Source of the DNA: Bacillota bacterium
GTDB taxonomy: Bacteria; Bacillota; Clostridia; Christensenellales; SZUA-584
Reading direction: 5' to 3'
Length of the DNA: 58,103 nucleotides
Assembly (NCBI GenBank): GCA_023396555.1
Contig: JAEWWC010000058.1
Location: forward strand, 1-58,103
The notes beneath the pieces are model-generated. The model was not told the origin of the DNA. It searched no databases and worked only from the letters and a program-made list of their open reading frames with translations. Shown piece after piece: positions 12,714 through 37,081 of the stretch (positions are counted from its first letter, which is position 1; each line of letters begins with the position of its first letter). The position numbers and the translations under genes are program-made.

Positions 12714-14036
12714 GTGAAAACGATGAAGGAAGCTCTGCTTGAAAAAATAGTGCACCGGGAGCTGAGGGTCGGCGTGGTGGGGTTGGGGTATGTCGGCCTG
12801 CCGCTGGCTGTGGAAAAGGCGAAAGCAGGATTTAAGACGGTCGGCTTTGACATACAGGAGAAGAAGGTGCGCATGGTGAACACCGGGCAAAACTACATCG
12901 GCGATGTGGTGGACGCGGATTTGAACCGGCTGATAAACGAAGGCATGCTCTACGCTTCCTCCGACTTCTCGTTCGTCCGAGACGTTGATTTCGTCGCGAT
13001 ATGCGTACCAACGCCGTTAGATAAGCATCAGCAGCCGGACATTAGCTGTGTGTGCGACTCGGCAGCCAGCATCGCGCGGTATCTGAAAAGGGAGTCGGTC
13101 GTGGTGCTGGAATCCACCACGTACCCTGGCACCACGGAGGAACTACTCAAGCCGATACTGGAGAAGGAGAGCGGCCTCATTTGCGGCACGGACTTCTATC
13201 TGGGTTTTTCGCCCGAGCGCGTTGACCCCGGTAACCTGATCTACAAGACGAAGAATACGCCCAAGGTGGTGGGGGCGATAGGCACGGACGCGTGTGAGGT
13301 CATTTCGTTCATGTACCGGCAAGTGCTGCAGGGGGATGTGAAGGAGGTGTCGTCGCCCGCGGTGGCCGAGATGGAGAAGATACTGGAGAACACGTACCGC
13401 AACGTCAACATCGGCCTCATCAACGAGATTGCCATGCTGTGCGACAGAATGAGCATCAACGTCTGGGAGGTGATCGACGCAGCGGGCACCAAGCCCTACG
13501 GCTTTCAGGCATTTTACCCCGGCCCCGGTCTTGGCGGCCACTGCATCCCGCTCGACCCGTATTACCTCTCATGGAAGGCGCGGGAATACGGCTTCCACAC
13601 CTCGATGATCGAGGCGGCGGGCATGGTGAACGACCACATGCCCGACTACTGTGTGGAGCGCATCAGCCGTATGCTCAATCGGCGTCAAAAGGCGCTGAGC
13701 TGCGCTGCCGTGCTGGTGCTGGGCGTGGCCTACAAGCAGGATATCGACGACTACCGGGAGAGTCCGGCGATCAAGGTGATTGAGAAGCTGGAGGAGCAAG
13801 GGGCGGCGGTGTCCTTCTACGACCCGTATGTCAGCGAATACGTCCATGAGGGGAAGCGCAGGCGGAGCATCGGCGCACTGACGGAGGAGACGCTGAAGCA
13901 GGCGGACGCGGTGGTGGTGACGGCAGCACATAAGGCAGTGGATTATGAGCTGGTTGCGCGGTGCGCAGCGGTAGTATTCGATGCGAAGAACGCCATGAAG
14001 AATGTCCGATGCCGAGATAATATCGAGCTTTTATAA
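12714..14036 (+). CDS. wbpA: UDP-N-acetyl-D-glucosamine 6-dehydrogenase (nucleotide-sugar dehydrogenase, WbpA-like)
   Basis: GTG start. N-terminal Rossmann motif VGVVGLGYVGLP and catalytic GGHCIPLDPYY. First gene of a wbpA-B-E-D-like set. Confidence 0.75.
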   Translation: MKTMKEALLEKIVHRELRVGVVGLGYVGLPLAVEKAKAGFKTVGFDIQEKKVRMVNTGQNYIGDVVDADLNRLINEGMLYASSDFSFVRDVDFVAICVPTPLDKHQQPDISCVCDSAASIARYLKRESVVVLESTTYPGTTEELLKPILEKESGLICGTDFYLGFSPERVDPGNLIYKTKNTPKVVGAIGTDACEVISFMYRQVLQGDVKEVSSPAVAEMEKILENTYRNVNIGLINEIAMLCDRMSINVWEVIDAAGTKPYGFQAFYPGPGLGGHCIPLDPYYLSWKAREYGFHTSMIEAAGMVNDHMPDYCVERISRMLNRRQKALSCAAVLVLGVAYKQDIDDYRESPAIKVIEKLEEQGAAVSFYDPYVSEYVHEGKRRRSIGALTEETLKQADAVVVTAAHKAVDYELVARCAAVVFDAKNAMKNVRCRDNIELL

Positions 14037-14050
14037 GGGAGTTAATACCT

Positions 14051-15136
14051 ATGGGGCTGAGATATGCGCTGATCGGGTGCGGCTCTATCGCACTCAACCA
14101 TTTCACCGCCGCGCTGAACAACGGCCTTGATATTTCGGGGCTTTGCGACATCGATGTGCATTCCGTGAAAAGCCTGACGGAAAAGGCGTGTTTTTACGGC
14201 GCGGCTGCAGCGTACACGGATTATCGGGCGATGCTGAGGGAAGCGCGGCCTGAGTTGGTGGCAATCACCACGGATAACGGCAACCACGCCCGCATCGCGC
14301 TGGACTGCATCGAGGCGGGCTGCCATGTGATCGTCGAGAAGCCCATTGCGCTGTCACTCAAGGACGCGGACGCCGTGATTGCCGCGGGGCGGGAGCGGGG
14401 CGTGTGCGTGTGCGCGTCCCATCAAAACCGCTTCAACGCGTCCGTTCAAATGATGCGCAGTGCCATCGGCGCGGGGCGGATGGGACGGTTGCTGTATGGA
14501 ACGACGCATGTGCGCTGGAACAGGGGGCAGGAATACTATGCCAAAGCGCCGTGGCGGGGAACATGGGCGCAGGACGGCGGCATGCTGGTCAACCAGTGTA
14601 TCCATCACATCGACCTGCTTCTCTGGCTGATGGGCGGCAAGGCGACGGAGGTGTTTGCTTACACGGACAATCTCAGCCACCAGTATATCGAGACGGAGGA
14701 TATGGGGTTGGCGTTGGTGAAATTCGCGGGCGGCGCGTACGGCGTTATCGAGGGAACGACTGATGTTTTCCCGAGGAATCTGGAGGAGACGCTGTATGTG
14801 TTTGGCGAGAAGGGCACGATGAAGGCGGGAGGCAAGGCACTCTCCCGCATCGAGGAATGGCGATTTGAGGACGGCCTGGATGATGACGAGGCGCTGAACG
14901 CGCTGAACGGGGAAGGCTGGCTGATCGCCGGTCATACCGCGCTGTATGCGGATGTGCTCCGCGCGATCCGCACAAAGACGCGGCCGCTGGCGGACGGCGA
15001 AGCCGGGCGGTGCGCATTGGAGCTGGCGCTGGCGATCCACAAGTCGGCGTCGGAGGGGCGGCCAGTGTGCCTGCCGCTCACGGATTTTTCCGTCGAGGAT
15101 ATAATGGGACATTTTAAGCAACGAGCAGAGGAATGA
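14051..15136 (+). CDS. wbpB: Gfo/Idh/MocA-family oxidoreductase (WbpB-like UDP-GlcNAcA 3-oxidase)
   Basis: MGLRYALIGCGSIALNHF NAD-binding N-terminus and EKPIALSL. Its position between the dehydrogenase and the aminotransferase supports the call. Confidence 0.65.
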   Translation: MGLRYALIGCGSIALNHFTAALNNGLDISGLCDIDVHSVKSLTEKACFYGAAAAYTDYRAMLREARPELVAITTDNGNHARIALDCIEAGCHVIVEKPIALSLKDADAVIAAGRERGVCVCASHQNRFNASVQMMRSAIGAGRMGRLLYGTTHVRWNRGQEYYAKAPWRGTWAQDGGMLVNQCIHHIDLLLWLMGGKATEVFAYTDNLSHQYIETEDMGLALVKFAGGAYGVIEGTTDVFPRNLEETLYVFGEKGTMKAGGKALSRIEEWRFEDGLDDDEALNALNGEGWLIAGHTALYADVLRAIRTKTRPLADGEAGRCALELALAIHKSASEGRPVCLPLTDFSVEDIMGHFKQRAEE

Positions 15137-15137
15137 T

Positions 15138-16259
15138 ATGCAGTTTATCGATTTGAGCAGGCAGTGCAGCCGTCTGGAGGTGGACATCCGCGCCAGACTG
15201 GACGCCGTATACCGGCATCAACGGTTCATCATGGGGCCGGAGGTCAAGGAGCTGGAGCAGCGGCTGGCGGAGGACACCGGCAGGCGGCATGTGGTGACGT
15301 GCGCCAACGGAACCGACGCGCTGACGCTGGCGTTGATGGCATACGGACTGAGCGCGGGCGATGCGGTGTTCGTACCGGCGTTCACTTTCTTCGCATCCGC
15401 TGAATGCGTCAGCGCGGCTGGCGGGACGCCGGTGTTTGTGGATGTGGATCCCGACACGTTCAACATCTGCCCCGAAGCGTTGGAGAAGGCCGTTGCCGCA
15501 ACGCTGGAGCGGGGAGCACTGCGCCCCCGCGCCGTGATACCGGTGGATCTGTTCGGGCTGCCCGCAGATTACGACCGCCTGCTGCCCATCGCCGAACGGT
15601 ATGGCCTGTTCGTGCTGGAGGACGCCGCGCAGAGCTTCGGCGGCGTTTACAGCGGCAAAAAGGCGTGCGCCTTTGGCCACGTATCCGCCACCTCATTCTT
15701 CCCCGCCAAGCCGCTGGGGTGCTGGGGCGACGGTGGCGCGGTGTTCACGGACGACGACGCGCTCGCGGAGCGGCTGGCGTCCATCCGCGTCCACGGGCAG
15801 GGCAAGGATAAGTACGACAACGTGCGCATCGGGCTCAATTCGCGGCTGGACACGATGCAGGCGGCGATACTGCTCGCAAAGCTGGGCGTGTTTGACGACG
15901 AGCTGAGTGCGCGCAACCGCGCGGCGGCGGCCTATACGGCGCGGCTGGGCACTGCCGTCAAAACGCCGCACATTCCGGCAGACGCCGTATCCGCGTGGGC
16001 GCAGTATACGCTGACAGCGCGTAGCGCAGCACACAGGGAGGCGTTGCTGCGAGAGCTGAAAGCGCAGGGGATACCAACAGCAGTCTATTACCCGACGCCG
16101 CTGCATCTGAGCACGGCTTACAAGCATCTGAATTATAGCGAGGGAAGCCTGCCTGTCTGCGAAGACCTGAGCCGCCGCGTGCTGAGTCTGCCGATGCACC
16201 CGTATCTGACGGATGAAGAGATAGCGCGGGTCAGCGGCGCGGTTCTGGCGTTGTGCTGA
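15138..16259 (+). CDS. wbpE: DegT/DnrJ/EryC1-family PLP aminotransferase (WbpE-like)
   Basis: MQFIDLSRQ...FIMGPEVKELEQRLAE...CANGTDALTLAL...SFFPAKPLGCWGDGGAVFTDDD...NSRLDTMQAAILL is collinear with my memory of P. aeruginosa WbpE. Confidence 0.8.
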   Translation: MQFIDLSRQCSRLEVDIRARLDAVYRHQRFIMGPEVKELEQRLAEDTGRRHVVTCANGTDALTLALMAYGLSAGDAVFVPAFTFFASAECVSAAGGTPVFVDVDPDTFNICPEALEKAVAATLERGALRPRAVIPVDLFGLPADYDRLLPIAERYGLFVLEDAAQSFGGVYSGKKACAFGHVSATSFFPAKPLGCWGDGGAVFTDDDALAERLASIRVHGQGKDKYDNVRIGLNSRLDTMQAAILLAKLGVFDDELSARNRAAAAYTARLGTAVKTPHIPADAVSAWAQYTLTARSAAHREALLRELKAQGIPTAVYYPTPLHLSTAYKHLNYSEGSLPVCEDLSRRVLSLPMHPYLTDEEIARVSGAVLALC

Positions 16260-16300
16260 AAGACGGCAAGAACCTACACGAAGAAAGGCGGGGAGCATCC

Positions 16301-16861
16301 ATGAGCTATTATATGCACGAAAGCAGCATCATCGACGACGGTGTGAAGATCGGCGACGGCACGAAGATATGGCATTTTTGTCACGTGCAAAACGGCGCGG
16401 AGATAGGCCGGGATTGTATGCTGGGGCAGAACGTATATATCGGCAGCGGCGTGAAAATCGGCAACGGGGTGAAGCTGCAGAACAACGTATCGGTGTACGA
16501 GGGTGTGGAGCTGGAGGATGGCGTGTTCTGTGGCCCGTCCATGGTGTTCACCAACGACCTGACACCCAGAAGCCTGTACCCCAAGGAAAAGGGCTGCGCA
16601 GTCAGGACGCTGGTGCGGCAGGGCGCCACTATCGGCGCGAACGCCACCATCGTATGCGGAGTAACCATCGGCAGGTGGGCGCTGGTGGCGGCGGGGGCGG
16701 TGGTCGCCAAGGATGTGCCCGACTACGCGCTGGTACGTGGAACGCCCTCGTCTGTAGTGGGGTGGGTATGCGAATGTGGAAAGCCGCTGAAGGACGGCTT
16801 TCAATGCCGAAGCTGCGGCAGAAAATATAACCCGGACGGCGGTCGGCTGACAGAGGAATAG
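16301..16861 (+). CDS. wbpD: Left-handed beta-helix N-acetyltransferase (WbpD-like)
   Basis: ATG at 16301 after AAAGGCGGGGAG. MSYYMHESSIIDDGVKIGDGTKIWHFCHV...NNVSVYEGVELEDGVFCGPSMVFTND...GATIGANATIVCGVTIG closely parallels WbpD. Confidence 0.8.
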   Translation: MSYYMHESSIIDDGVKIGDGTKIWHFCHVQNGAEIGRDCMLGQNVYIGSGVKIGNGVKLQNNVSVYEGVELEDGVFCGPSMVFTNDLTPRSLYPKEKGCAVRTLVRQGATIGANATIVCGVTIGRWALVAAGAVVAKDVPDYALVRGTPSSVVGWVCECGKPLKDGFQCRSCGRKYNPDGGRLTEE

Positions 16862-17098
16862 AAATCGAAATCTTCCGAAAAGATCCCAAGCCTTAGCGGC
16901 TCATTATTTGATACGTTTTGTCGTTTAAAAGCGATTGAAATTGATTTTCACTCGCTTTTTGCATAAAGAAATTGATTTTTACTGTGATGTATGCTATATG
17001 TATATAAATATATTAAGAATATGTGACGCAAATATTACAAAAAACCATTTCAAAAAATGCTTGCTGTCGACGGATCAAAGACTGCAAAACAGGAGGAA

Positions 17099-19423
17099 AT
17101 GATGCGGAAGAAAATACTGTGGCTGGCTCTCTGTGTACTCATGTTGCTCTCTTTGTTTCCGATATCATCGGCGTTTGCAGCAAGCCCGTATGACAGAATC
17201 CGTGTTAAGCTGTCCATAGGCACTCCCACCAAGTTTTCATTTCTGGTAGACGGGAACTACAGCGTTGCCGGAAAGGCGCTGGAACGGCAGCTTTATACCG
17301 TTAAAGTTGAGGGCGGCCAGCTGAAGCTTTATCTGGGTAGCTCTCTAGTGTCCGGCGGCTCCACGATATATCTGACCCAGCACCAGATGACGCAAGCGCA
17401 AAGGAATGAGAACCTCAACAATTCTATTTGGCTGGCCAACACCAGCCAAGGCGACCGGTCTTATATCGGCGACATGTCGTTTTCCATACAAGGCGGCGTG
17501 ATTCAGCTGGTCAACAACCTGGGGCTTGACCAATATCTGTACGGCGTGGTGCCGCACGAGATGAGCGATTCCTTCCCGCTGGAGGCACTGAAAAGCCAGG
17601 CGGTGGCCGCGCGCAACTACGCGGTCAGTAAAATCAGCGGCTCCGGCACCTACGACCTGACGGACCTTTCATCGGTTGACCAGGTTTACAAGGGGTACGA
17701 TCCGACGTTAACGAACGCCATTGCGGCGGTGGACGCGACGGCGGGCAAGGTGATGACCTACGGCGGCAGCGTCATAACGGCGTACTATTCGGCGTCCAAC
17801 GGCGGCATGACGGATATTCCGTATCATCGCTGGGGAGGCGGCGCGAATTGGGTGTACTACGATATCCAACCGGATCCGTTTGACATTGCCAATCCGTCAA
17901 GCCTGTACGAGACTCTCTATTTTCCCGCGGTCAATACCGAGGGAAATGTGACGTCGGGCGGCAACACCGGAACGATGCCCAGCACAGCCATTGCTACGAA
18001 CTATATTAAGCAGGCGATACTGGACAGTGGGCAGCTATCCGCTTATAGCGTAACGGGTATCAACCAGTTTGCGCTCACCGGCATCAATGGGCTGTATGCC
18101 CACACCTACGATACCTTCAGCGGGCAGAATCATAGCCTGATGCCGTTTTCCGGAGTGAACAACTGCATTGACATGGTGCGCGCCACGGGCAGCTTCTCCG
18201 TGACGCTGCTGTCCAGCATGAACGGCGCAGCCGCTCCGGCGGAGAAGCCGACCGTGCCCGACGAGGGGACGAGCCTGGAGGAACCGGTTGCGCCGGATGA
18301 GGGGACGAGCCCGGAAGAACCGGTTGCGCCGGACGAAAGGACGAGCCCTGAGGAACCGTCCGTGCCGGATGAGGAGACGAGCTCTGAAGAACCGGATACG
18401 GCGGATGAGGGGGCTCGCGTCATTCTGGCAGGCGAAACGGATACCCAAATAGCGGACGTGCCGGCCGGGACGGTAGTCAGCGTGACGGGAGTGGACTTTT
18501 CGCTGCGCACGCTCAACGGTTCGGACGGCACCTCGGCGTACAAGGCATTTCAATCCACCAGTCTTGGCGTGGTGGTGGTGGAGCCGGTGTACAGCGGCAG
18601 CACGCTGACGGGCTACAACATCGCGCAGCGGCGCTATGGACACGGCATCGGCCTGTCGCAGCGTGGCGCGCAGCAGCGGGCCAAGGCGGTGTCGGAGGGC
18701 GGCGGCGGACAGACCTATGAGCAGATACTTGCGTTCTACTATCCGAGCACGGCGATTACCTCGCTGAATACCACAACGCCTTCGCAAACGGTGCTGGCAT
18801 CTGCCGGCTACACCAACGCCACGGTCGTTAATACGACGTCGCTGAACGTGCGCAGCGGGCCCGGAACCAACTATGGCAAAGTTGGGACGCTGCCGGGCGG
18901 CGCGCGCGTGGAGGCGATGGAAGCGGGTGTCGCGTCAAGCTGGTATATGATCGACTACGGCGGCACCGCCGCATATGTCCATAAAGACTACATTAAACAG
19001 GATACCAAGGCGCTGCTCTCCACCAAGTTTATTCGGCGCAACAACCTGCTTTACATCGGCGCCAACACGACCTGCAGCACGCTGGTCAGCAGCTTTGTGG
19101 GGTACAGCGGAACCATAACGGTACGCAACGCCTCCGGTACGGTGATATCCGGCAGCACCAAGGTGGGCGCCGGGGTAACGGTGACACTGATGAACGGGTC
19201 CACAACGCTGGATCAGGTGACGCTGTATCTGAAGGGCGACGTGAACGGAGACGGGGCGATAGGTATCGCGGATTATACCGCAATCCGCCTGCATATTCTC
19301 AACACCACTCCGCTCAATGGCTTCGGCGTCCAGATGGCGGATGTGGACGGCGACGGAGAAGTGGATATCATGGATTATACGTTGATTCGGTTGTATTTGC
19401 TGGGCCTGTGGTCAATCGGATAA
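17099..19423 (+). CDS. Secreted SpoIID/LytB-domain protein with an acidic Pro/Glu repeat linker, an SH3b domain, a conserved module and a dockerin
   Basis: Signal peptide MMRKKILWLALCVLMLLSLFPISSAFA. SpoIID/LytB core: YLYGVVPHEM, EALKSQAVAARNYA, YYSASNGGMT, GHGIGLSQRGA. SH3b: LNVRSGPGTNYGKVGTLPGGARVEAM. Dockerin: GDVNGDGAIGIADYTAIRLHIL ... DVDGDGEVDIMDYTLIRLYLLG. Confidence 0.85.
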   Translation: MMRKKILWLALCVLMLLSLFPISSAFAASPYDRIRVKLSIGTPTKFSFLVDGNYSVAGKALERQLYTVKVEGGQLKLYLGSSLVSGGSTIYLTQHQMTQAQRNENLNNSIWLANTSQGDRSYIGDMSFSIQGGVIQLVNNLGLDQYLYGVVPHEMSDSFPLEALKSQAVAARNYAVSKISGSGTYDLTDLSSVDQVYKGYDPTLTNAIAAVDATAGKVMTYGGSVITAYYSASNGGMTDIPYHRWGGGANWVYYDIQPDPFDIANPSSLYETLYFPAVNTEGNVTSGGNTGTMPSTAIATNYIKQAILDSGQLSAYSVTGINQFALTGINGLYAHTYDTFSGQNHSLMPFSGVNNCIDMVRATGSFSVTLLSSMNGAAAPAEKPTVPDEGTSLEEPVAPDEGTSPEEPVAPDERTSPEEPSVPDEETSSEEPDTADEGARVILAGETDTQIADVPAGTVVSVTGVDFSLRTLNGSDGTSAYKAFQSTSLGVVVVEPVYSGSTLTGYNIAQRRYGHGIGLSQRGAQQRAKAVSEGGGGQTYEQILAFYYPSTAITSLNTTTPSQTVLASAGYTNATVVNTTSLNVRSGPGTNYGKVGTLPGGARVEAMEAGVASSWYMIDYGGTAAYVHKDYIKQDTKALLSTKFIRRNNLLYIGANTTCSTLVSSFVGYSGTITVRNASGTVISGSTKVGAGVTVTLMNGSTTLDQVTLYLKGDVNGDGAIGIADYTAIRLHILNTTPLNGFGVQMADVDGDGEVDIMDYTLIRLYLLGLWSIG
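18254..18415 (+). repeat. About 36-bp coding tandem repeat (roughly 4 copies) encoding a PDEGTSxEEPVA linker
   Basis: VPDEGTSLEEPVAPDEGTSPEEPVAPDERTSPEEPSVPDEETSSEEP, read directly from the sequence. Confidence 0.8.
19235..19420 (+). other. Dockerin module of the SpoIID/LytB protein
   Basis: Duplicated Ca-loop/helix segments, as quoted for the parent CDS. Confidence 0.75.
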
Positions 19424-19459
19424 GCAGTAAGCGAAAAAACTGACCAAAACCGACAGCAG

Positions 19460-19489
19460 TTGACCTTACAGGTAACTTTGTATTATAAT
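19460..19489 (+). promoter_or_regulatory. Promoter of the Fn3-repeat protein gene
   Basis: TTGACC (19460-19465), an 18-nt spacer, then TATAAT (19484-19489). Confidence 0.55.
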
Positions 19490-19572
19490 GACAATAAAAT
19501 GGTGGTGTTGTACTTGTTTGGGACGGTTTTCAAGATTTTTTTGATAAAACATTTCTTTTGCGGAGGTTACTG

Positions 19573-22218: not shown

Positions 22219-22336
22219 CAGAACAAGAATCTAATTATTAACATGGATAGAGTCTGTGCTTCATTAATGCTTAGTGATTTTCAGTAAAGCCAGGCTCTAT
22301 TTTTGTCCGTGTGCCGATTATATGGATAAGAAGTAG

Positions 22337-22365
22337 TTTACACCTGACCGATCAACGTTTAGAAT
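22337..22365 (+). promoter_or_regulatory. Candidate promoter for the glycosyltransferase/polymerase/flippase/pse gene block
   Basis: TTTACA, a 17-nt spacer, then TAGAAT, about 80 nt upstream of the GT2 start. Confidence 0.4.
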
Positions 22366-23507: not shown

Positions 23508-23551
23508 ACAGAAAAAGCTGACAATTGAGGCTTCAAACTTTACACATCCTC

Positions 23552-28869: not shown

Positions 28870-28971
28870 GAAAGGTTGCACTTTGGGCCCAGCTACAGTA
28901 CAATTTGGGAAGCAATATTTTGGCGGCCAGCAGCCGATATTATGGATACAAGGATAGAGAAGGAGAAGAAC

Positions 28972-29964
28972 ATGCTGAACAACAAATCGATATTGATCAC
29001 CGGGGGGACGGGATCCTTCGGCAACCATTTTACCCAATACGTATTGGACCATTATGATCCCAAGAAGATCGTGATATATTCCCGTGACGAATATAAACAG
29101 TTTGTGATGTCCAACGCGTTTCGGGCTCATGCGGACAAGCTGCGGTTCTTTATCGGTGATGTGCGCGACAAGGAACGCCTCGTGCGCGCGCTGGACGGCA
29201 TCGATTTTGTGATACACGCCGCGGCATTAAAACAGGTGCCCGCGTGTGAGTATAACCCTATCGAAGCGGTGCGCACCAACATCGACGGCGCCATCAACGT
29301 GGTTAACGCGGCGCTGGATACCGGCGTGTCGCGCGTGGTGGCGCTGTCCACCGACAAGGCGGTGAACCCGATCAACCTGTATGGCGGCACCAAACTTGTA
29401 TCGGACAAGCTGTTTACTGCCGCCAATGCGTATGCGGGCAGTAAGGACATCCGTTTCTCCATCGTGCGCTACGGAAACGTGGCGGGCAGCCGCGGTTCCG
29501 TCATCCCCTTCTTCAAGGGGATGATCGAAAAAGGCGAGAAAGCGCTGCCGATCACAGACTACCGCATGACGCGGTTCTGGATAAGTCTGGAGCAGGGCAT
29601 CGAGCTGGTTATCAAGGCATTGAAGCTTTCGCACGGCGGAGAAACGTTCATCTCCAAAATACCCTCGTTTAAGATCACCGATCTGGCGCAGGCAATGCTG
29701 CCCGGATGCGAGATGCCTGAGGTAGGCATTCGTGAGGGGGAGAAACTGCACGAGGTGATGGTGACACGGGACGACTCGGCTAACACCTACGAATATGATG
29801 ACAGCTATGTCATCTATCCCCACTACACCTGGTGGGATAAAGCTCACATGATCCCCGGCGGCAAAAAGGTGGAGACAGGCTTTGAGTATAGCTCCGGCAC
29901 CAACAAGGAGTGGCTGTCGGTAGAACAGCTTCAGGAATTACTGGTTCAGGTGCATAAGGGGTGA
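28972..29964 (+). CDS. pseB: UDP-N-acetylglucosamine 4,6-dehydratase (inverting), PseB/FlaA1-type
   Basis: ATG at 28972 after AGAAGGAGAAG. MLNNKSILITGGTGSFGN...RFFIGDVRDKERL...DFVIHAAALKQVP..EYNP.E...TNI.GA.NV...STDKAVNPINLYGGTKL.SDKLF...RYGNVAGSRGSVIPFF...LPITD.RMTRFWISLE is collinear with C. jejuni PseB as I remember it. Confidence 0.9.
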   Translation: MLNNKSILITGGTGSFGNHFTQYVLDHYDPKKIVIYSRDEYKQFVMSNAFRAHADKLRFFIGDVRDKERLVRALDGIDFVIHAAALKQVPACEYNPIEAVRTNIDGAINVVNAALDTGVSRVVALSTDKAVNPINLYGGTKLVSDKLFTAANAYAGSKDIRFSIVRYGNVAGSRGSVIPFFKGMIEKGEKALPITDYRMTRFWISLEQGIELVIKALKLSHGGETFISKIPSFKITDLAQAMLPGCEMPEVGIREGEKLHEVMVTRDDSANTYEYDDSYVIYPHYTWWDKAHMIPGGKKVETGFEYSSGTNKEWLSVEQLQELLVQVHKG

Positions 29965-29969
29965 GTGGA

Positions 29970-30710
29970 ATGGCGAAAACGGTTGCTGTGATACAGGCGC
30001 GCGTGGGGTCGACAAGGCTGCCCGGCAAGGTGCTAAAGCTGCTGCATGGCAAAACCGTGTTGGCGCATGTGATTGAAAGGGTGCGGCAGGCCGCGGAGGT
30101 GGTCGAAATCGTGATCGCCACGACCGTCTCGCCAGGCGACGATGCGATTGTTGACGAGGCGTTGCGTTGCGCCACAACGGTGTTCCGCGGCAGCGAGGAG
30201 GATGTGCTGAGCCGTTATTACGGCGCGGCGGCGGAATCTGGTGCGAATATCGTGGTGCGCGTCACATCGGACTGCCCGCTGATCGACCCGCAGGTGATGG
30301 ACGAAATCATCAGGTTTTTTAAGAGGAATGATTATGACATCGTGACGAACGCCGCCAGCGATATATCCAAGCGGACTTATCCGCGTGGGCTGGATACCGA
30401 GGTGTTTTCGTTTTCCGCGCTGGAGGAGGCTGCAAACAAGGCGGACAAGCAGTATCAGCACGAGCACGTAACGCCCTATATCTACGAGCACGGCCGCGCC
30501 TATTATCACATGAATGACACTGACTATTCGCGCTACCGCTGGACGCTGGACACCGAGGAGGACTGGCGACTGATCGAAGCGCTGTACGACAGCCTTTATA
30601 AGGGCCGGCATGACTTTTATTTGCCGGACATATTGGACGTGATGCAGCGGCGGCCGGAGTTGTTTGATATCAACAAGGATATTGGGCAGAAAAAGCTGGG
30701 AACGGAGTAG
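29970..30710 (+). CDS. Nonulosonate cytidylyltransferase (SpsF/CTP_transf_3-type; PseF role)
   Basis: MAKTVAVIQARVGSTRLPGKVLKLL.GKTVLAHVIERV is an SpsF-like cytidylyltransferase N-terminus. The gene lies between pseB and pseI. Confidence 0.7.
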   Translation: MAKTVAVIQARVGSTRLPGKVLKLLHGKTVLAHVIERVRQAAEVVEIVIATTVSPGDDAIVDEALRCATTVFRGSEEDVLSRYYGAAAESGANIVVRVTSDCPLIDPQVMDEIIRFFKRNDYDIVTNAASDISKRTYPRGLDTEVFSFSALEEAANKADKQYQHEHVTPYIYEHGRAYYHMNDTDYSRYRWTLDTEEDWRLIEALYDSLYKGRHDFYLPDILDVMQRRPELFDINKDIGQKKLGTE

Positions 30711-30714
30711 AAGC

Positions 30715-31773
30715 GTGAACACTATTGCAATATGCGACCGTTTAATCGGTGAGGGATATCCGGCGTATATCATCGCTGAAATGTCTGCTAATCATGCAGG
30801 GAGCATGAACAATGCTAGAAAAATCATCCGCGCTGCGAAGGACGCCGGAGCCGATTGTATAAAGGTGCAGACGTATACTGCGGACACGCTTACCATCAAT
30901 TGTGACAACGAATTCTTCTCAATAAAGGACGGCCTGTGGAAGGGGGAAACGCTGTACAGCCTTTACGGCAAAGCGTACACGCCGTGGGAGTGGCAGGCCG
31001 AGATGAAGGCTGAGGCGGAGAACATCGGGCTGGACTTCTTCTCCACACCTTTTGACAACTCGGCAGTGGATTTTCTCGAAGATATCAGTGTGAAATTCTT
31101 CAAAATCGCTTCGTTTGAGCTAGTGGATATTCCGCTGATACAATATGTGGCGTCCAAGGGCAAGCCGGTGATAATTTCCACCGGCATGGCAAGCTTTGAC
31201 GAGATACGGGACGCCGTGGACGCGGTACGGTCGCAGGGAAATGAATCGCTGGCGTTGATGAAATGCTCCAGCGCTTACCCCGCCGTTCCGGATGACATGA
31301 ACCTCAGAACGCTTCAGCACATAGCGGACACTTTTCAAGTTCCCGTCGGTTTATCGGATCATTCGCTGGGTTCCATCAGCGCTGTTACGGCTGTGGCGCT
31401 GGGCGCGTGCATCATCGAAAAGCACTTCTGCCTGAGTCGCGGACTGGAGAATCCGGACGCGGCATTTTCCATGGAGCCGGACGAATTCTCGCAGATGGTA
31501 AAGGATATCCGTACCGCGGAGAAGGCGATAGGGAAAGCCGGCTACGATATTTCCGAAAAGGAGAAGGACAGCCTGCGCTTCCGGCGGTCCCTGTTCGTCG
31601 TAAAGGATATCGGCAAAGGCGAGGCGCTGACGGCAGAAAACGTACGCAGCATCCGACCGGGACAGGGGATGAAGCCCAAGCACTACTTTGAAATATTGGG
31701 GAGGAAGGCGGCACAGGATATCAAAGCCGGTACGCCCCTGCAATTTGATCTGATTGAGGGCGGCGGGAAATGA
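30715..31773 (+). CDS. pseI: Pseudaminic acid synthase (NeuB family with a C-terminal SAF domain)
   Basis: GTG at 30715 after GGAG. IGEGYPAYIIAEMSANHAGS...AKDAGADCIKVQTY...FKIASFELVDIPLI...GKPVIISTGMA...LMKCSSAYPA...GLSDHSLG, followed by a SAF-type tail. Confidence 0.85.
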   Translation: MNTIAICDRLIGEGYPAYIIAEMSANHAGSMNNARKIIRAAKDAGADCIKVQTYTADTLTINCDNEFFSIKDGLWKGETLYSLYGKAYTPWEWQAEMKAEAENIGLDFFSTPFDNSAVDFLEDISVKFFKIASFELVDIPLIQYVASKGKPVIISTGMASFDEIRDAVDAVRSQGNESLALMKCSSAYPAVPDDMNLRTLQHIADTFQVPVGLSDHSLGSISAVTAVALGACIIEKHFCLSRGLENPDAAFSMEPDEFSQMVKDIRTAEKAIGKAGYDISEKEKDSLRFRRSLFVVKDIGKGEALTAENVRSIRPGQGMKPKHYFEILGRKAAQDIKAGTPLQFDLIEGGGK

Positions 31774-33266
31774 CGCCGTTTTATCTGCGGAAGGCCGAAT
31801 GGACCGACGCCAGAACGCTGCTCGACTGGGCCAACGACCCGGATACCCGGAGGAACTCCTTTCGTTCAGACGGGATAACATGGGAGGAGCATATCGGCTG
31901 GTTTGAAGCCTGTCTGAAAAATCCCAATATCGATTTTTATATCTGCTGCTGCGAGGACCAGCCCGTCGGCCAGGTGCGCCTGAACTGTGAAGGCGAAATT
32001 GGTGTGGTGAGCTACAGCATCGCCAGGGAAGCCCGCGGACAGGGCATCGGCAGCCAGATCATACAACTGATTGAAAAGGAGGCCCTCAGATCGAGGCCGG
32101 AGCTGACGACACTGTCGGGCAGCGTCAAGACGGAAAACGTCGCCTCGCAACGGATATTTGAGAAGAATGGCTATCGGAAGGAGACCGTTCAAGCGTCGGA
32201 GCCGTATTTGCGTTATATCAAGGCGCTGACGCGGCGGCCTGCCATCGGCATACGCGTAGACGCGAATAGCCATATCGCCACCGGACATATGATGCGCTGT
32301 CTGTCCATCGCGGCGGCGGTGAGGAAGACGGGGGCGGACTGCGTCTTTTTTACGGCGGAACGCGAGGCCGCCCGTTATGCGGAGGATCGCGGTTTTGAGT
32401 GTGTGCCGCTGGATTCGCAGTGGGACGACCTTGAGCCAGAGGCGGACAGGCTGCGGAGTGCGCTACGGGAGCGGGGTATCGGTAAACTGCTTGTCGATAC
32501 GTATTACGCTACGCCCGCATATCTTGAAAGGCTCCGTACGGGCGTCAGCGCCATCTATATGGACGATCTTAATGCGTTTTTCTGTCCGGCGGACATGCTG
32601 ATAAACTACAACATATACAGTGGCCTGTTCGATTATCCCCGGCTGTATCGGAACACCGGAACGCGCCTGCTGCTGGGCTGCGACTATGCGCCGCTGCGCG
32701 AAGAGTTCCGCGGACTGCCGCCCGTTGCCCGTGATAGCGTCCGCAGGGTGCTGATCACGACGGGTGGTACGGATCCGTACAACGTGGCGGGTAAGCTGCT
32801 GAAGCGTATAGGTGAGTGCGGACTGTTCGGTGGCGTGGAGTTTCATGTGATCGCGGGGCGGTTGAATGCGCAACTTGATAGTCTGAAGGCGCTGTCGGAA
32901 AAGCGGCCCGGCTTTGTGGTGTATTCGAACGCGCAGCGCATGGCGGAGCTGATGCGAAGCTGTGATCTGGCGGTGTCGGCGGGCGGCTCAACACTGTACG
33001 AGCTGTGCGCTTGCGGATTGCCGACCGTCACGCTCTCCATGGCGGACAACCAGCTGTACGCCGTGAGGGAGTTTGCCGTGCAGGGGCTGATGCCGTATGC
33101 GGGCGACATGCGCGCGGATGAATCGGCGTGCGTTGGGGCCGTGCTGGCCGCGCTAACTGCGCTGACGGAGGATAAGGAACGCCGCAGGCAGACTGCGCAG
33201 GGCATGAGGCTGCTGGTGGATGGAAACGGCGCGGGGCGCATCGCGGATGCCATTGCCGCGCTTTAA
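31770..33266 (+). CDS. Bifunctional PseH-like GNAT N-acetyltransferase (N-terminal) / PseG-like UDP-sugar hydrolase (C-terminal)
   Basis: Residues ~1-160 form a GNAT fold (VGQVRLN...ARGQGIGSQIIQLIEKEA...ENVASQRIFEKNGY). Residues ~165-498 are PseG-like GT-B (IGIRVDANSHIATGHMMRCLSIAAAV...LITTGGTDPYN...VSAGGSTLYELCACGLP). Confidence 0.8.
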   Translation: MTPFYLRKAEWTDARTLLDWANDPDTRRNSFRSDGITWEEHIGWFEACLKNPNIDFYICCCEDQPVGQVRLNCEGEIGVVSYSIAREARGQGIGSQIIQLIEKEALRSRPELTTLSGSVKTENVASQRIFEKNGYRKETVQASEPYLRYIKALTRRPAIGIRVDANSHIATGHMMRCLSIAAAVRKTGADCVFFTAEREAARYAEDRGFECVPLDSQWDDLEPEADRLRSALRERGIGKLLVDTYYATPAYLERLRTGVSAIYMDDLNAFFCPADMLINYNIYSGLFDYPRLYRNTGTRLLLGCDYAPLREEFRGLPPVARDSVRRVLITTGGTDPYNVAGKLLKRIGECGLFGGVEFHVIAGRLNAQLDSLKALSEKRPGFVVYSNAQRMAELMRSCDLAVSAGGSTLYELCACGLPTVTLSMADNQLYAVREFAVQGLMPYAGDMRADESACVGAVLAALTALTEDKERRRQTAQGMRLLVDGNGAGRIADAIAAL

Positions 33267-33284
33267 GCGATTTTGGAGGACGAA

Positions 33285-34409
33285 ATGTTTATACCCTACG
33301 GAAGACAATGCATTGAGGAAGACGATATACAGGCGGTTGCGGAGGTACTTCGGTCGGATTTTCTGACGACCGGCCCCAAGGCGGCGGAGTTTGAGCAGGT
33401 GATGACGGCATACACCGGAGCGAAGCATGCGGTCGCCATTAGCAACGGCACCGCGGCGCTGCATGCGGCCTGCCTCGCGGCGGGTATCGGCGAGGGCGAC
33501 GAGGTGATCACCTCGGCCATCACGTTCGCTGCGTCGGCCAACTGCACGTTGTTCTGCGGCGGCCGTCCGGTGTTCGCGGACATCGAACCGGCCACGTACA
33601 ACATCGATCCTGAGGATATCCGGCGTAAGATTACGGGCCGGACGAAGGCCATAATACCGGTGCATTTCACCGGGCAGCCGTGCGACATGGACGCCATTCA
33701 CGCCATCGCGGACGAATGCGGCCTTATGGTGATCGAGGATGCCGCACACGCGCTGGGGGCGGAATACAAGGGCAAAAGGATCGGCGCGTTGTCCGACATG
33801 ACCACGATGAGCTTCCATCCCGTCAAGCATATATCGACGGGCGAGGGCGGTATGATACTGACGAATGACGATGAGCTGATCAAAAGGCTGGTGCTCTTCC
33901 GTTCGCATGGCATCACGCGCGATGACAGCCTGATGAACCGCAACGAGGGCGGCTGGTACTATGAACAGCTTGAACTGTCCACCAACTACCGCATCACCGA
34001 CTTCCAGTGCGCACTGGGCATCAGCCAGATGAAAAAGCTGGACCGCTTTGTGCAGCGCCGCCGCGAAATCGCCCGGCGTTACGACGAGGCGTTCGCGGGG
34101 CTGGAGGGCATTGTGACGCCATGGCAGTCGCCCGACGGGTACAACAGCTACCATCTCTATGTGATACAGGTGACGCACATGCCCCGGAAGGAAGCGTTCG
34201 ACAGGCTCCGCGCGGCGGGGATCGGTGTTAATGTCCACTATATTCCCGTCTATAAGCACCCTTATTATCAGGCAAACGGTTATGTGGGCGTTTCGTGCCC
34301 CAACGCCGAAGCGCTGTATGAGAGGATGATCAGCCTGCCCATGTTCCCGCTGTTGACAGACGAGCAGCAGGATTACGTGATCGCGCAGGTGCGCGCGCTG
34401 CACGGGTGA
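33285..34409 (+). CDS. pseC: UDP-4-amino-4,6-dideoxy-N-acetyl-beta-L-altrosamine transaminase (DegT family)
   Basis: ATG at 33285 after GGAGG. MFIPYGRQCIEEDDIQAVAEVLRSDFLTTGPK...AISNGTAALHAA...SFHPVKHISTGEGGMILTND is typical of PseC. Confidence 0.85.
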   Translation: MFIPYGRQCIEEDDIQAVAEVLRSDFLTTGPKAAEFEQVMTAYTGAKHAVAISNGTAALHAACLAAGIGEGDEVITSAITFAASANCTLFCGGRPVFADIEPATYNIDPEDIRRKITGRTKAIIPVHFTGQPCDMDAIHAIADECGLMVIEDAAHALGAEYKGKRIGALSDMTTMSFHPVKHISTGEGGMILTNDDELIKRLVLFRSHGITRDDSLMNRNEGGWYYEQLELSTNYRITDFQCALGISQMKKLDRFVQRRREIARRYDEAFAGLEGIVTPWQSPDGYNSYHLYVIQVTHMPRKEAFDRLRAAGIGVNVHYIPVYKHPYYQANGYVGVSCPNAEALYERMISLPMFPLLTDEQQDYVIAQVRALHG

Positions 34410-35977
34410 CGGAACTGCTGCCGGAAAACCGGAGTAAAGGAAGGCTGGCGGCATTTCTCCGGAACAGATTCTATGAGGTTTTCTGCGGATTTCCGTTCAT
34501 CGTCGCGCTGGTTTTTGGCGTTATCAGCTTTTTTAATCCGGATATGGACGGGCGTAGGATGAGCCTGTTGCTTGTCCTTGTTTTTTTCGGCCTGTGCGCA
34601 CTTTGGCTCTGGTTTGCCGGAGAGCCGCAGGGCAGGGCCGGCAGGCTGTGGCGCTGGTTGTATATGCCGATGGCGGTATGGGTGTGCGCTGCCGCAATCC
34701 GCATTGCCTGGGCTGTCCATGTCGGCCCATATGTTGAGCCTTTTTCCGATTTTGATTGGGCGTATCAGGCGGCGCTAGGCTCAACTGATTTCATCCGGCA
34801 TCATGCCACGTTTCCTTCGTGGGGGCTGTATGTCGGCTTGATTAGATTAGTTATTAATATTAGTTCGCCCGCATTTATAAGCATTCAGATTTTTAACGCG
34901 TTGGTCAACAGTTTCACAGTCATACTGGTGTACTATATCACTTTGCTCGCTGCTAAGAATTTCAAAGTTGCTGTCGTGGCAGGCCTGATGATGTGCTTTA
35001 TGCCATCAAATATACTTTATACAAGTGTACTAAGCCCGGAAATTCCATCTCTGCTGTTATTACTGCTGGTTATTCTGGGTATGATCGTTACATTCAAGCC
35101 GGAACTGAGATTATGGATACGGGTAATCATTTTGATCAGCGTAGGCGCTGTTTGTGCTGTAGCCAATTATTTAAAGGCCGTAGCGGTTATTGCGATCATC
35201 GCATACGTCATTGCACAGGTGATGTATCTGCGAAAGAGAGATACTGCCCAGGTTGAAGACAAAAAGAAACCATTGATAAAACAAGCGGCAATTGTTGGTC
35301 TGTCAATTGTTTTGATGGCTGTTCCGTTTCTACTGACAACGAAGGCTATAAACCGTTATGTTGAACAGGAACTCGGAGTGTCCATAAACCATAGTCAAAT
35401 GTCGCACTTTCTGTTTGTGGGGCTAAATACCAAAGGGGAGGGGCAGATACATATCGGTGAATACAACCATATGGATCTTGAATTTTTGGCAGAGCATGAC
35501 TATGATTATGAACTGACCGACCAATGGGTCAGGGAGTTTCTCCGCCGTGACTGGTCGGATAACTATGAGGATATCCCTGCACTGTTCTTCAGCAAGATAC
35601 AGTGGGCTTGGCAAGATGATATGATGCCGGCGGCATATACCGGTCAGCAGATTGACAGTACAAACATGGATTCAAGTCAAGTACAAGTAATAGAACAGTA
35701 TGCGCCGTCGTTGTCTCAGGCGTTTTATGTAGTTTTTATGCTTCTGGCCGTAGTAGGTAGTATTGGCATCAGGAAGCAGCATGCAGATAATAATGGCTAT
35801 TTCCTATTGTGCATGTATATTTTCGGCGTTGCGCTGGTACTGTTGCTGAGCGAAGCGCAGTCGCGCTATAAATGTATGGTCACACCTGTGATCTGTATTT
35901 TGTCATCAGTGGGTTTAGAAACAGTCACAAAAGGTATAAAGGAGAGAATTCTACACATATGGGAATCAAGCCATTAA
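34406..35977 (+). CDS. Polytopic GT-C-fold glycosyltransferase (GT39/GT83, ArnT/PMT_2-like; GtrC-type role)
   Basis: GTG start overlapping the pseC stop (GTGA). 523 aa with more than 10 TM helices, an early extracytoplasmic loop with an acidic aromatic motif (PFSDFDWAY) and a large loop near the C-terminus. It is followed by GtrA- and GtrB-like genes. Confidence 0.55.
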   Translation: MTELLPENRSKGRLAAFLRNRFYEVFCGFPFIVALVFGVISFFNPDMDGRRMSLLLVLVFFGLCALWLWFAGEPQGRAGRLWRWLYMPMAVWVCAAAIRIAWAVHVGPYVEPFSDFDWAYQAALGSTDFIRHHATFPSWGLYVGLIRLVINISSPAFISIQIFNALVNSFTVILVYYITLLAAKNFKVAVVAGLMMCFMPSNILYTSVLSPEIPSLLLLLLVILGMIVTFKPELRLWIRVIILISVGAVCAVANYLKAVAVIAIIAYVIAQVMYLRKRDTAQVEDKKKPLIKQAAIVGLSIVLMAVPFLLTTKAINRYVEQELGVSINHSQMSHFLFVGLNTKGEGQIHIGEYNHMDLEFLAEHDYDYELTDQWVREFLRRDWSDNYEDIPALFFSKIQWAWQDDMMPAAYTGQQIDSTNMDSSQVQVIEQYAPSLSQAFYVVFMLLAVVGSIGIRKQHADNNGYFLLCMYIFGVALVLLLSEAQSRYKCMVTPVICILSSVGLETVTKGIKERILHIWESSH

Positions 35978-36402
35978 GGCAGGGTCTTCCGAGGGAAATA
36001 ATACTATACGGCTTGATTGGGGGGGGGTCGGCGGGTACGGATACGCTATTGTTTTGGATGCTGTCCAAAGCCATAAGCCCGTTTGTCGCAAACTGTGTCA
36101 GTGTAACTATGGGTATAACAATCAGCTTTTTACTAAACACGTTTATTAACTTCAAAGTAAAGGACAAGTTTTTTATCAGAGCGGTCAGCTTCTATGCAAT
36201 TGGATTCACGGGTCTGGCGCTCTCCTCGCTGCTTCTTTACCTGGGTATCGAGTTACTCCAAATGGATAACTTAATCGTCAAGATCATCTCAGTTTTTGTC
36301 GTTGCGGCGGTTCAGTTTACTTTAAACAAACTAGTCACATTCAGAAAAGGCATAAAAGGAGAAGCACATGAGTCGTCTGCACATCATCATCCCGGCATAT
36401 AA
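35959..36402 (+). CDS. GtrA-family membrane protein (polyprenyl-P-sugar translocation component)
   Basis: ATG at 35959 after AAGGAGAG. 4 TM helices, with YGLIGGGSAGTDTLLFW...FLLNTFINFK...AAVQFTLNKLVTFRK typical of GtrA. The gene contains a G9 tract at 36019-36027. Confidence 0.75.
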   Translation: MGIKPLRQGLPREIILYGLIGGGSAGTDTLLFWMLSKAISPFVANCVSVTMGITISFLLNTFINFKVKDKFFIRAVSFYAIGFTGLALSSLLLYLGIELLQMDNLIVKIISVFVVAAVQFTLNKLVTFRKGIKGEAHESSAHHHPGI

Positions 36403-37081
36403 CGAGGAATCCAACATCGAAAAAGTGGCGCGAGAGTGGCACCAGGTGGTTGAGAGCCTAGGTGACGAGGGATCGAAGCTGGTTATCATTGATGATGGTT
36501 CCCGCGATAGTACCTTTGAAATTCTTAGCCAGCTTGCGAAGGAGTTAAAATGCCTTCAGCCCATCCGAAAGGAAAACAGTGGTCATGGCGCGACGGTGCT
36601 TTTCGGATACCAGTGGGCTATGCGGGACGGCGCGGACTTCATATTTCAGACGGACTCGGACGGGCAGACGATACCTGACGAGTTCGCAAAGTTCTGGGGG
36701 ATGCGGAACGAATACGACGCGGTTATTGGTCACCGGAAAAACAGGCAGGATGGCTTTTCCCGCATCTTGGTGACTAAGACACTCAAGTTGGTACTGCTGC
36801 TGACATTTGGCGTTCGTATTACGGATGCCAACACGCCTTTTCGGCTAATGAAAAGGGAGCTTCTTGAAAAATATATAAGCAGGGTACCTGATGGGTTTAA
36901 CCTGACAAATGTGCTGCTGACGGTGGCGTTTGTCAGAAACAAAGAAAGAGTGATATTCCTTCCGATCACCTTCCGGCCCAGACAAGGGGGCATTAACTCG
37001 ATCAACCTGAAGAAAATTATACGCATCGGAACGCGCGCGGTTAAGGATTTTCGTCTGGTAAACAAGCAGTCTCGGCTGTAA
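36368..37081 (+). CDS. GT2 polyprenyl-phosphate glycosyltransferase (GtrB/DPM1-like)
   Basis: LHIIIPAYNEESNIEKV...LVIIDDGSRDST...QTDSDGQ... The short, soluble form overlaps the end of gtrA. Confidence 0.75.
   Translation: MSRLHIIIPAYNEESNIEKVAREWHQVVESLGDEGSKLVIIDDGSRDSTFEILSQLAKELKCLQPIRKENSGHGATVLFGYQWAMRDGADFIFQTDSDGQTIPDEFAKFWGMRNEYDAVIGHRKNRQDGFSRILVTKTLKLVLLLTFGVRITDANTPFRLMKRELLEKYISRVPDGFNLTNVLLTVAFVRNKERVIFLPITFRPRQGGINSINLKKIIRIGTRAVKDFRLVNKQSRL

Follow-up and report, generated by a model that had tools for sequence, protein, structure and literature searches.

A mosaic, probably Wzx-dependent surface-glycan locus with a Wzy_C–sialyltransferase-like fusion protein in an uncultured member of the Clostridia

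The stretch of 58,103 nucleotides analysed here (contig JAEWWC010000058.1, positions 1 to 58,103), referred to as the window, comes from an uncultured anaerobic spore-forming member of the Clostridia. At 12714-37081 on the plus strand it carries a surface-glycan locus of 18 consecutive same-strand open reading frames (ORFs), ~24 kb in extent, whose nearest relatives are found in metagenome-assembled genomes (MAGs) of Christensenellaceae. The locus is real: a fairly ordinary mix-and-match set of genes with which an uncultured anaerobe of the gut would make a sugar polymer for its surface, and a mosaic at a fixed chromosomal site. With moderate confidence we favour its reading as a Wzx-dependent surface-polysaccharide locus, probably wall-linked, in which a single glycan uses both uridine diphosphate (UDP)-2,3-diacetamido-2,3-dideoxyglucuronic acid (UDP-GlcNAc3NAcA) and cytidine monophosphate (CMP)-pseudaminic acid (CMP-Pse). 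Its one unusual part is an 855-residue protein that joins a Wzy_C-type membrane domain to a sialyltransferase-like domain; together with the stand-alone relatives of the latter, this is the only element that might count as new.

Results

Gene content and layout of the locus

Domains were called with Pfam and NCBIfam, and the per-ORF profile scans recovered all 18 ORFs that an earlier note on this DNA had listed, each with the domains named there. Several start codons were refined from gene calls in matching contigs (L108, L114). The products are listed below; where two bit scores are given, the second is the model cut-off.

12714..14036, plus strand: nucleotide-sugar 6-dehydrogenase (TIGR03026), WbpA-like role from context
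14051..15136, plus strand: UDP-GlcNAcA 3-dehydrogenase of the WlbA/WbpB type, GFO/IDH/MocA family, from solved WlbA structures
15138..16259, plus strand: WbpE/WlbC-like pyridoxal-phosphate-dependent aminotransferase, DegT family, from WbpE structures
16301..16861, plus strand: WbpD/WlbB-like hexapeptide N-acetyltransferase, from structure 3MQG; start from the L108 gene calls (longest ORF from 16253)
17102..19423, plus strand: secreted SpoIID/LytB-domain protein with SH3 and dockerin domains (Pfam SpoIID, SH3_3, Dockerin_1)
19573..22218, plus strand: fibronectin-III (fn3)-like repeat protein, membrane-anchored or secreted (fn3 and GH85_C repeat matches)
22446..23507, plus strand: GT2 glycosyltransferase a (GT2a), widely conserved type (PF00535)
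23688..24755, plus strand: GT2 glycosyltransferase b (GT2b), the variable one (PF00535)
24770..26212, plus strand: N-terminal membrane domain of the 855-residue fusion, Wzy_C/WaaL/O-oligosaccharyltransferase family (PF04932, 61.5 bits)
26213..27337, plus strand: C-terminal GT-B domain of the fusion, sialyltransferase-like by fold and family profile matches, candidate pseudaminic-acid transferase
27442..28869, plus strand: Wzx-type flippase, Polysacc_synt (PF01943, 78.8 bits)
28972..29964, plus strand: PseB, inverting UDP-GlcNAc 4,6-dehydratase (TIGR03589, 536 against 407.75 bits; start from L114)
29970..30710, plus strand: cytidylyltransferase, CMP-Pse synthetase role from context (PF02348, CTP_transf_3, 114 bits)
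30715..31773, plus strand: PseI, pseudaminic acid synthase (TIGR03586, 487.6 against 340.25 bits; NeuB equivalog not reached)
31770..33266, plus strand: PseH-like GNAT domain fused to PseG (PseG 195.6 against 153.55 bits; PseH 50.6 against 93.1)
33285..34409, plus strand: PseC aminotransferase (TIGR03588, 503.4 against 423.5 bits)
34406..35977, plus strand: GT-C membrane glycosyltransferase, PMT/ArnT-like (PF02366, 24.5 against 22.7 bits); 4-nucleotide overlap with the pseC stop
35959..36402, plus strand: GtrA-family small membrane protein (PF04138, 63 bits; start from L114)
36368..37081, plus strand: GtrB-like GT2 of the polyprenyl-phosphate sugar synthase type (PF00535, 64 bits)

The 5' half of the locus recurs at 99.4-100% nucleotide identity in contigs of other samples (L108-L113), and the 3' half recurs with identical gene order in L114-L117, one of which is from an NCBI MAG. 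Because the layout was found again in these independent assemblies, an assembly chimera was ruled out. Between pseB and the GT-C gene, each start codon adjoins the preceding stop codon or overlaps it by at most 4 nucleotides, with larger overlaps at the gtrA and gtrB starts, which suggests that the pse genes and the Gtr trio form one transcription unit. Operons are not defined by the promoter-like and terminator-like sites, since their counts in the window lay near the expectation from shuffled sequence (26 vs. 17.7 and 18 vs. 16.2, respectively). An Rfam scan of the window returned no match.

Two nucleotide-sugar pathways

The first four genes would supply UDP-GlcNAc3NAcA, as had been proposed from their likeness to wbpA, wbpB, wbpE and wbpD. 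Of the solved structures, those of WlbA, WbpE and WlbB stand nearest to three of the products by a wide margin. For the 3-dehydrogenase, the WlbA structures 3Q2K and 3Q2I matched at 1e-67, 42 orders of magnitude before the next structure (1e-25), and one source names a homologue UDP-N-acetyl-2-amino-2-deoxyglucuronate dehydrogenase. The aminotransferase matched the WbpE structures 3NU7, 3NYS and 3NYU at 1e-103, with an unnamed DegT structure, 4QGR, as the sole better match, and it stays under the PseC equivalog cut-off (231 vs. 423.5 bits). The acetyltransferase matched WlbB 3MQG at 5e-59, the next match being 3e-37. The 6-dehydrogenase is assignable at family level: it reached 421.6 bits against a TIGR03026 cut-off of 189.8, every equivalog model fell below its cut-off, and among solved structures UDP-ManNAc(A)-type dehydrogenases come nearest. 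Its WbpA-like role as a UDP-N-acetylglucosamine (UDP-GlcNAc) 6-dehydrogenase is therefore suggested by context. No 2-epimerase (WbpI/WlbD; Epimerase_2 type) was found among the window ORFs scanned, so that the predicted uronic acid is the gluco form (GlcNAc3NAcA) and not the manno form (ManNAc3NAcA), unless an epimerase is encoded elsewhere in the genome.

The second pathway leads to pseudaminic acid. PseB, PseC, PseG and PseI exceeded their NCBIfam equivalog cut-offs, which bears out the naming of these pse genes, but the PseH-like GNAT domain and the PseF-like protein did not reach theirs. The latter, a divergent CTP_transf_3 protein, scored 28 bits against a PseF cut-off of 205.7, and its best solved relative is an unnamed cytidylyltransferase (6OEW). 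It occupies the same position, at 69-74% identity, in the Pse clusters of two other loci (L007, L009), and its role as CMP-Pse synthetase is inferred from this conserved place. In the subfamily comparison set beforehand for the wbp- and pse-like ORFs, based on structure matches and NCBIfam equivalogs, none fell in a different subfamily, with weaker assignments for the 6-dehydrogenase, the GNAT domain and the cytidylyltransferase.

The Wzy_C–sialyltransferase-like fusion

The N-terminal half of the 855-residue protein contains ~12 hydrophobic segments and a 105-residue loop with the motif H-N-x9-G-x-x-G at residue 390, after which come three more segments. Based on these three segments (hydropathy and the positive-inside rule), the C-terminal glycosyltransferase domain was placed in the cytoplasm. 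A WaaL-type motif, H[NSQ]x9Gxx[GTY], occurs in the external loop of 26 of 38 fused representatives, and a profile of the N-terminal domain of the fused family matched the ligase WaaL (7TPG, 4e-6) and an oligosaccharyltransferase (9RMK, 9e-5). Pfam Wzy_C also includes true polymerases of Gram-positive capsule loci, and the domain match therefore does not discriminate a polymerase from an oligosaccharyltransferase. By sequence the two activities, polymerase and ligase, look alike in this domain; given the motif and the structure matches, polymerase activity of the fusion cannot be taken as established.

The C-terminal 374 residues gave no Pfam (E<=10), NCBIfam or PDB sequence match of their own, and the link to sialyltransferases was drawn from the matches of family members and from the predicted fold. 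An exhaustive search returned 1230 representative clusters of homologues at E<=0.001 (258 at E<=1e-30), including stand-alone proteins of ~360 residues and fusions of 800-920 residues; among the best 150 of these 1230 clusters, 37 are fusions of the Wzy_C–glycosyltransferase kind and most of the remainder are stand-alone. An AlphaFold model of the domain built with the family alignment showed a GT-B fold with a predicted local distance difference test score (pLDDT) of 92.4; a model of the whole fusion, for which four sequences were aligned, was of no use (pLDDT 41). The top PDB fold match of the domain model was a bacterial polysialyltransferase of family GT38 (5WC6, E 4e-10), followed by generic GT-B enzymes at ~1e-6, and no entry described as GT52 was present among the top 50. 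The aligned family members matched PF07388 (GT38) in 14 of 36 cases and PF07922 (GT52) in 6 of 36. Thus, the fusion with a Wzy_C domain that the earlier note had reported is present, but its C-terminal part lies nearer GT38 than the GT52 of that note's label.

The motifs E-D-G (D/E-D/E-G), H-P and S-T are signatures of bacterial sialyltransferases. In alignments of 36-37 sequences, the Asp, Gly, His, Pro, Ser and Thr of the E-D-G, (R-x-)H-P and S-T motifs show little or no variation. By predicted fold and by the D/E-D/E-G and H-P motifs, the domain fits the bacterial GT-B sialyltransferase superfamily (GT38/52/80/100), and it is a candidate nonulosonate (pseudaminic-acid) transferase that resembles GT38 more than GT52. 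A better label for the protein is a Wzy_C/WaaL-family membrane domain fused to a GT38/52-like nonulosonate transferase.

The gene neighbourhood also favours such a role: of the ~14 genome loci where the fusion is full-length and the flanks are long enough, 10 have a synthase of the NeuB/PseI family within 10 kb, usually with Wzx adjacent. We tentatively suggest that the fusion may represent an undescribed family, in which a cytoplasmic GT38/GT52-like transferase carried on a WaaL/Wzy_C domain could physically couple the final cytoplasmic step, in which the repeat unit is capped with Pse or a different nonulosonate, to polymerisation or ligation outside the membrane, and that the stand-alone form could be an uncatalogued family of nonulosonate transferases without a Pfam model. 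Literature searches found no paper on a Wzy–sialyltransferase fusion.

A full-length homologue with 34% identity was also seen in a different setting (L002 10001-12496; also L003, L004), alone between valS and prfC. No Wzx or nonulosonate gene is adjacent to it; the only glycan-type genes of the contig lie ~8-10 kb upstream, and spoIIIA genes are present on the contig.

Glycosyltransferases, flippase and Gtr trio

Two GT2 enzymes and a Wzx flippase were found as previously described, and the window holds a single flippase and a single Wzy_C protein. The two GT2 enzymes differ in conservation. GT2a is 61-81% identical in many fusion loci and has more than 557 metagenome relatives at 50-69% identity, many labelled human gut, in loci that carry neither wbp nor Pse genes nor the fusion. 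In this it resembles a general-purpose glycosyltransferase for an early assembly step, common to many Clostridia glycan loci. A metagenome scan with GT2a for co-occurrence of wbp and Pse genes returned generic GT2 loci only. GT2b is 31-63% identical in related loci. The Wzx gene adjoins the fusion gene in nearly all related loci.

The trio at the 3' end also agrees with its earlier description: the GT-C, GtrA and GtrB genes are adjacent, overlap, and carry PF02366, PF04138 and PF00535, respectively. For the GtrB-like GT2, the best NCBIfam models were PgfS and ArnC-type ones, all under their cut-offs. The trio is absent from the related cassette in L007; the L009 contig ends at pseC and is uninformative on this point.

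Mosaic origin and comparative context

Loci containing the fusion were scanned in species-representative genomes, giving 20 loci, mostly from uncultured Christensenellaceae, Oscillospiraceae and other Clostridia MAGs, largely of gut origin. In L007 and L009 the cassette GT2a-GT2b-fusion-Wzx-PseB-cytidylyltransferase-PseI-PseHG-PseC is retained with extra genes interspersed, and no wbp, repeat-protein or SpoIID-like gene lies within 10 kb of it. In L007, a Christensenellaceae MAG, Glf precedes the cassette, and an LCP ligase, a Bac_transf initiating transferase and a DUF3048 protein are encoded beside it.

The opposite arrangement was found in a related genome, L026, whose upstream flank proteins are 61-92% identical to those of the window (DNA ~82% identical). 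At the same chromosomal site it carries wbpA (80%), wlbA (67%) and wbpE (72%), followed by GT4 genes, a different Wzx and wbpD (67%), and it lacks both the Pse genes and the fusion. The two genomes thus have the upstream flank and wbpA/B/E in common and differ in the central region of the site, and in the window guanine-plus-cytosine (GC) content changes stepwise between blocks (wbp 0.60-0.65; GT2b through Wzx 0.40-0.50; pse genes 0.55-0.61; Gtr trio 0.44-0.48). The mosaic origin of the locus was concluded from these two observations.

Comparison of synteny therefore separates wbp genes common to a related genome from a Pse cassette common to other lineages. The earlier view that wbp joined to Pse is unusual in an anaerobic spore-former did not hold: both modules are common, each recurs separately (L026; L007 and L009), and precedents exist in the literature. 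At least 7971 WlbA-like proteins were found at E<=1e-40, with 57-67% identity, and those with a named source are from gut Firmicutes (Eubacteriales, Lachnospiraceae, Christensenellales, Eubacterium and Succiniclasticum). A wall polymer of 2,3-diacetamido-2,3-dideoxymannuronic acid has long been known in the spore-former Geobacillus stearothermophilus (PMC4232325), the spore crust of Bacillus subtilis contains a nonulosonate (PMC7439481), and NeuB-family synthases are widespread in Firmicutes (PMC8208679). Among ~25 comparable loci, this particular gene combination was seen in this species only; such a combination is of the kind that modular glycan loci routinely produce. Literature searches found no paper on Pse glycans of Christensenella and no reported Gram-positive glycan with both sugars.

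The two genes between the wbp block and the cassette had been described as exoenzyme genes inserted in the middle of the locus. The SpoIID/LytB protein does have an enzyme domain (TIGR02669, 159.9 vs. 83.3 bits; the sporulation SpoIID equivalog was not reached), but Pfam and NCBIfam scans found none in the fn3-like protein, in which an N-terminal membrane anchor or signal peptide precedes ~8-9 near-identical, Thr-, Ser- and Tyr-rich repeats of 92 residues (a period of 276 bp in the DNA). Orthologues of both (53% and 65% identity, respectively) occupy the same position in an uncultured Christensenellaceae MAG (L001/L006), upstream of GT2-GT2-fusion-Wzx-PseB. Therefore, the two genes are part of a lineage-conserved neighbourhood and not a one-off insertion.

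Proposed pathway and alternative readings

Five further products outside the locus enter into its interpretation:

1..299, minus strand: WecA/TagO-like polyprenyl-phosphate GlcNAc-1-P transferase, first 99 residues, cut by the window edge (six-frame translation)
50530-52506, minus strand: LCP-family glycopolymer-peptidoglycan ligase (PF03816; TIGR00350, 96 against 62.3 bits)
52765-54546, minus strand: LCP-family glycopolymer-peptidoglycan ligase (PF03816)
54729-56615, minus strand: LCP-family glycopolymer-peptidoglycan ligase (PF03816)
37195..38295, minus strand: DUF3048 protein next to the locus, with a homologue beside the L007 cassette (4077-5084, minus strand)

In the pathway that we propose, four Wbp-like enzymes would convert UDP-GlcNAc to UDP-GlcNAc3NAcA, and six activities (PseB, PseC, GNAT-PseG, PseI and the divergent cytidylyltransferase) would yield CMP-Pse. 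On the inner membrane face, a repeat unit linked to undecaprenyl phosphate would then be assembled, possibly started by the distant WecA-like enzyme and extended by the two GT2 enzymes, with pseudaminic acid added last by the cytoplasmic sialyltransferase-like domain of the fusion; the donor and acceptor specificities in this scheme are predicted ones. Wzx would flip the repeat unit, the Wzy_C membrane domain of the fusion would polymerise it outside, and an LCP enzyme would join the polymer to peptidoglycan. Finally, the GtrB-like/GtrA/GT-C trio may add a side-chain sugar outside the membrane.

An acidic, wall-linked heteropolymer containing both sugars, as the earlier note had predicted, is a reasonable product by homology. 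That both sugars would belong to one system, and so to one polymer, we infer from the single flippase and the single Wzy_C protein in the window, where the wbp block comes without a glycosyltransferase, flippase or polymerase. Wall attachment is supported by the three LCP genes, which were found where they had been placed (50530-56615, minus strand), and by the position of the L007 cassette beside an LCP ligase, Bac_transf and DUF3048.

Several observations weigh against this interpretation. The solved relatives of the Wzy_C domain are a ligase (WaaL) and an O-oligosaccharyltransferase, and the domain carries the WaaL-type motif. The window ORFs scanned include neither a chain-length regulator nor a tyrosine kinase (Wzz, CpsC/D). 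A WecA/TagO-like candidate does exist at 1-299, but it is a minus-strand fragment of 99 residues located 12 kb upstream of the locus, and it is the sole initiating-transferase candidate in the window. The LCP genes lie 13-19 kb off, on the opposite strand and behind unrelated genes, dnaJ and clpB among them. A 5.4-kb interval with two non-glycan genes lies between the wbp block and the rest, and the cassette occurs in L007 and L009 without wbp genes nearby.

Protein O-glycosylation is the main alternative, rather unlikely but to be taken seriously, and it accommodates some of these points. The Wzy_C domain would then act as an O-oligosaccharyltransferase (like PglL, or like WsaB/WsfB of S-layer glycosylation) that transfers a flipped, Pse-bearing oligosaccharide to surface proteins, with the fn3-like repeat protein as a candidate target. 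Besides the WaaL and oligosaccharyltransferase profile matches, the external-loop motif and the lack of a chain-length regulator among the ORFs scanned, it is favoured by the location of this anchored Thr/Ser/Tyr-rich protein directly upstream of the glycosyltransferase genes, a location kept in L001. However, other fusion loci have no repeat protein, the L007 cassette stands beside an LCP ligase and an initiating transferase, and Wzy_C covers true Gram-positive capsule polymerases as well.

It is also improbable, in our estimate, that two unrelated systems are juxtaposed, with the wbp block feeding a glycan whose assembly genes lie elsewhere in the genome and the GT2-GT2-fusion-Wzx-Pse-Gtr cassette making a separate Pse glycan free of the uronic acid. 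The L026 arrangement, in which the wbp block precedes a different Wzx and glycosyltransferase set, would agree with such a division, as would the absence of wbp genes within 10 kb of the Pse cassette in L007 and L009, the GC difference and 5.4-kb distance between the blocks, and promoter-like sites in the gaps. Against it, the wbp block has no glycosyltransferase, flippase or polymerase of its own in the window, all genes are on one strand, the arrangement is stable across independent assemblies, and the wbp genes of L026 plainly serve the adjoining Wzx locus.

In Clostridia and Campylobacter, Pse genes most often serve to glycosylate flagellin, and a Pse pathway that looks complete is present here, but a flagellin glycosylation island is very improbable because the window ORFs scanned include no flagellar or Maf-type gene and because Wzx and Wzy_C point to a lipid-linked extracytoplasmic route.

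Flanking genes and other observations

The 1..299 fragment had ECA_wecA as its best NCBIfam match (E 1e-7), ahead of MraY models, and no Pfam or PDB match. A plus-strand frame-1 ORF at 13-312 was considered as WecA and rejected, the real candidate being on the minus strand. The presence of DUF3048 beside the Pse cassette in both the window and L007, despite otherwise different neighbours, may indicate a link to wall-glycan assembly.

Upstream of the locus, an AT-rich intergenic stretch of ~600 bp (10061-10656; GC 0.39 at 10-11 kb) lies between a Na/Pi cotransporter gene and the gene for an S8 protease with a dockerin domain; in L026 the place of the protease gene, between the genes for the cotransporter and WbpA, is taken by a GT4 gene. 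Type-I dockerin domains occur in three proteins of the window: the S8 protease (10657-12522, minus strand), the SpoIID/LytB-SH3 protein (17102-19423, plus strand) and a Big_2 protein (38604-40487, plus strand). No cohesin was seen in the window, and the dockerins hint at a cohesin–dockerin surface display unrelated to cellulose degradation. The fn3-like repeat protein (19573-22218) may serve as a glycoprotein substrate or form a fibril at the surface.

In the interval from the glycan locus to the LCP genes, a low-GC stretch (45000-48643; 0.405 at 45-46 kb) lies beside genes for a DnaC/IstB-like ATPase (47262-47963, minus strand) and a DUF6291 protein (47960-48643, minus strand), and could be what is left of a small mobile element or prophage. 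A Coat F spore-coat protein (56988-57272, minus strand) and a rubrerythrin (49017-49511, plus strand) are consistent with an anaerobic spore-former.

Comparison with known systems

If the product is confirmed, the poorly charted surface chemistry of Christensenellaceae-like anaerobes of the gut would gain a doubly acidic, Pse-capped wall glycan, of interest for phage receptors and for recognition by host lectins or the immune system. The fusion with its stand-alone relatives is a more useful lead, since these are candidate pseudaminic- or legionaminic-acid transferases, a class with few characterised members.

The comparisons with Streptococcus and with Gtr-type modules draw on general knowledge. 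Streptococcus agalactiae and Streptococcus suis have sialylated Wzx/Wzy capsule loci composed of cpsA-L and neuBCDA. The present locus resembles them in its Gram-positive setting, in a predicted lipid-linked repeat unit to which a GT-B sialyltransferase would add a nonulosonate, in the pairing of Wzx with a putative polymerase of the Wzy_C type, in predicted LCP attachment to peptidoglycan, and in the position of the nonulosonate biosynthesis genes at the 3' end. Unlike those loci, it would use pseudaminic acid and not N-acetylneuraminic acid, its GT38-like domain is fused to Wzy_C and is not a separate GT52 enzyme, no CpsBCD regulators were found among the ORFs scanned, the LCP genes are distant, and a Wbp block and a Gtr trio are added. 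The trio itself resembles known three-component modules (GtrA/GtrB/Gtr-type, CsbB/GtcA/YfhO and GacI-L), in which a polyprenyl-phosphate GT2, a GtrA-family protein and a GT-C enzyme are encoded together; unlike in those modules, it appears translationally coupled to the pse operon.

With the wall polymer of G. stearothermophilus, compared here by polymer and not by gene cluster, the locus shares a Gram-positive spore-forming host and a wall-bound acidic polymer based on a di-N-acetylated uronic acid, which is here a prediction. In contrast, the Geobacillus polymer is manno-configured, and no nonulosonate has been reported in it. The sps genes of B. subtilis, which are expressed as the cells sporulate, are not known to include a Wzx/Wzy_C pair, and nothing in the present analysis ties our locus to sporulation. 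The sps spore-crust pathway is alike in providing a nonulosonate surface glycan in a spore-forming Firmicute, but it is a pathway for legionaminic acid (PMC7439481).

The modular K loci of Acinetobacter baumannii offer a parallel in sugar modules: gna/dgaABC (GlcNAc3NAcA) occurs in 26 and psa (Pse) in 39 (24, 13 and 2 by module type) (PMC9676051), so that GlcNAc3NAcA and Pse modules are common interchangeable cassettes there as well. A. baumannii differs in being Gram-negative, in having Pse transferases and Wzy as separate proteins, and in export by Wza-Wzb-Wzc. The present locus follows the same familiar rule, by which surface-glycan loci are built from interchangeable sugar modules at a fixed chromosomal site.

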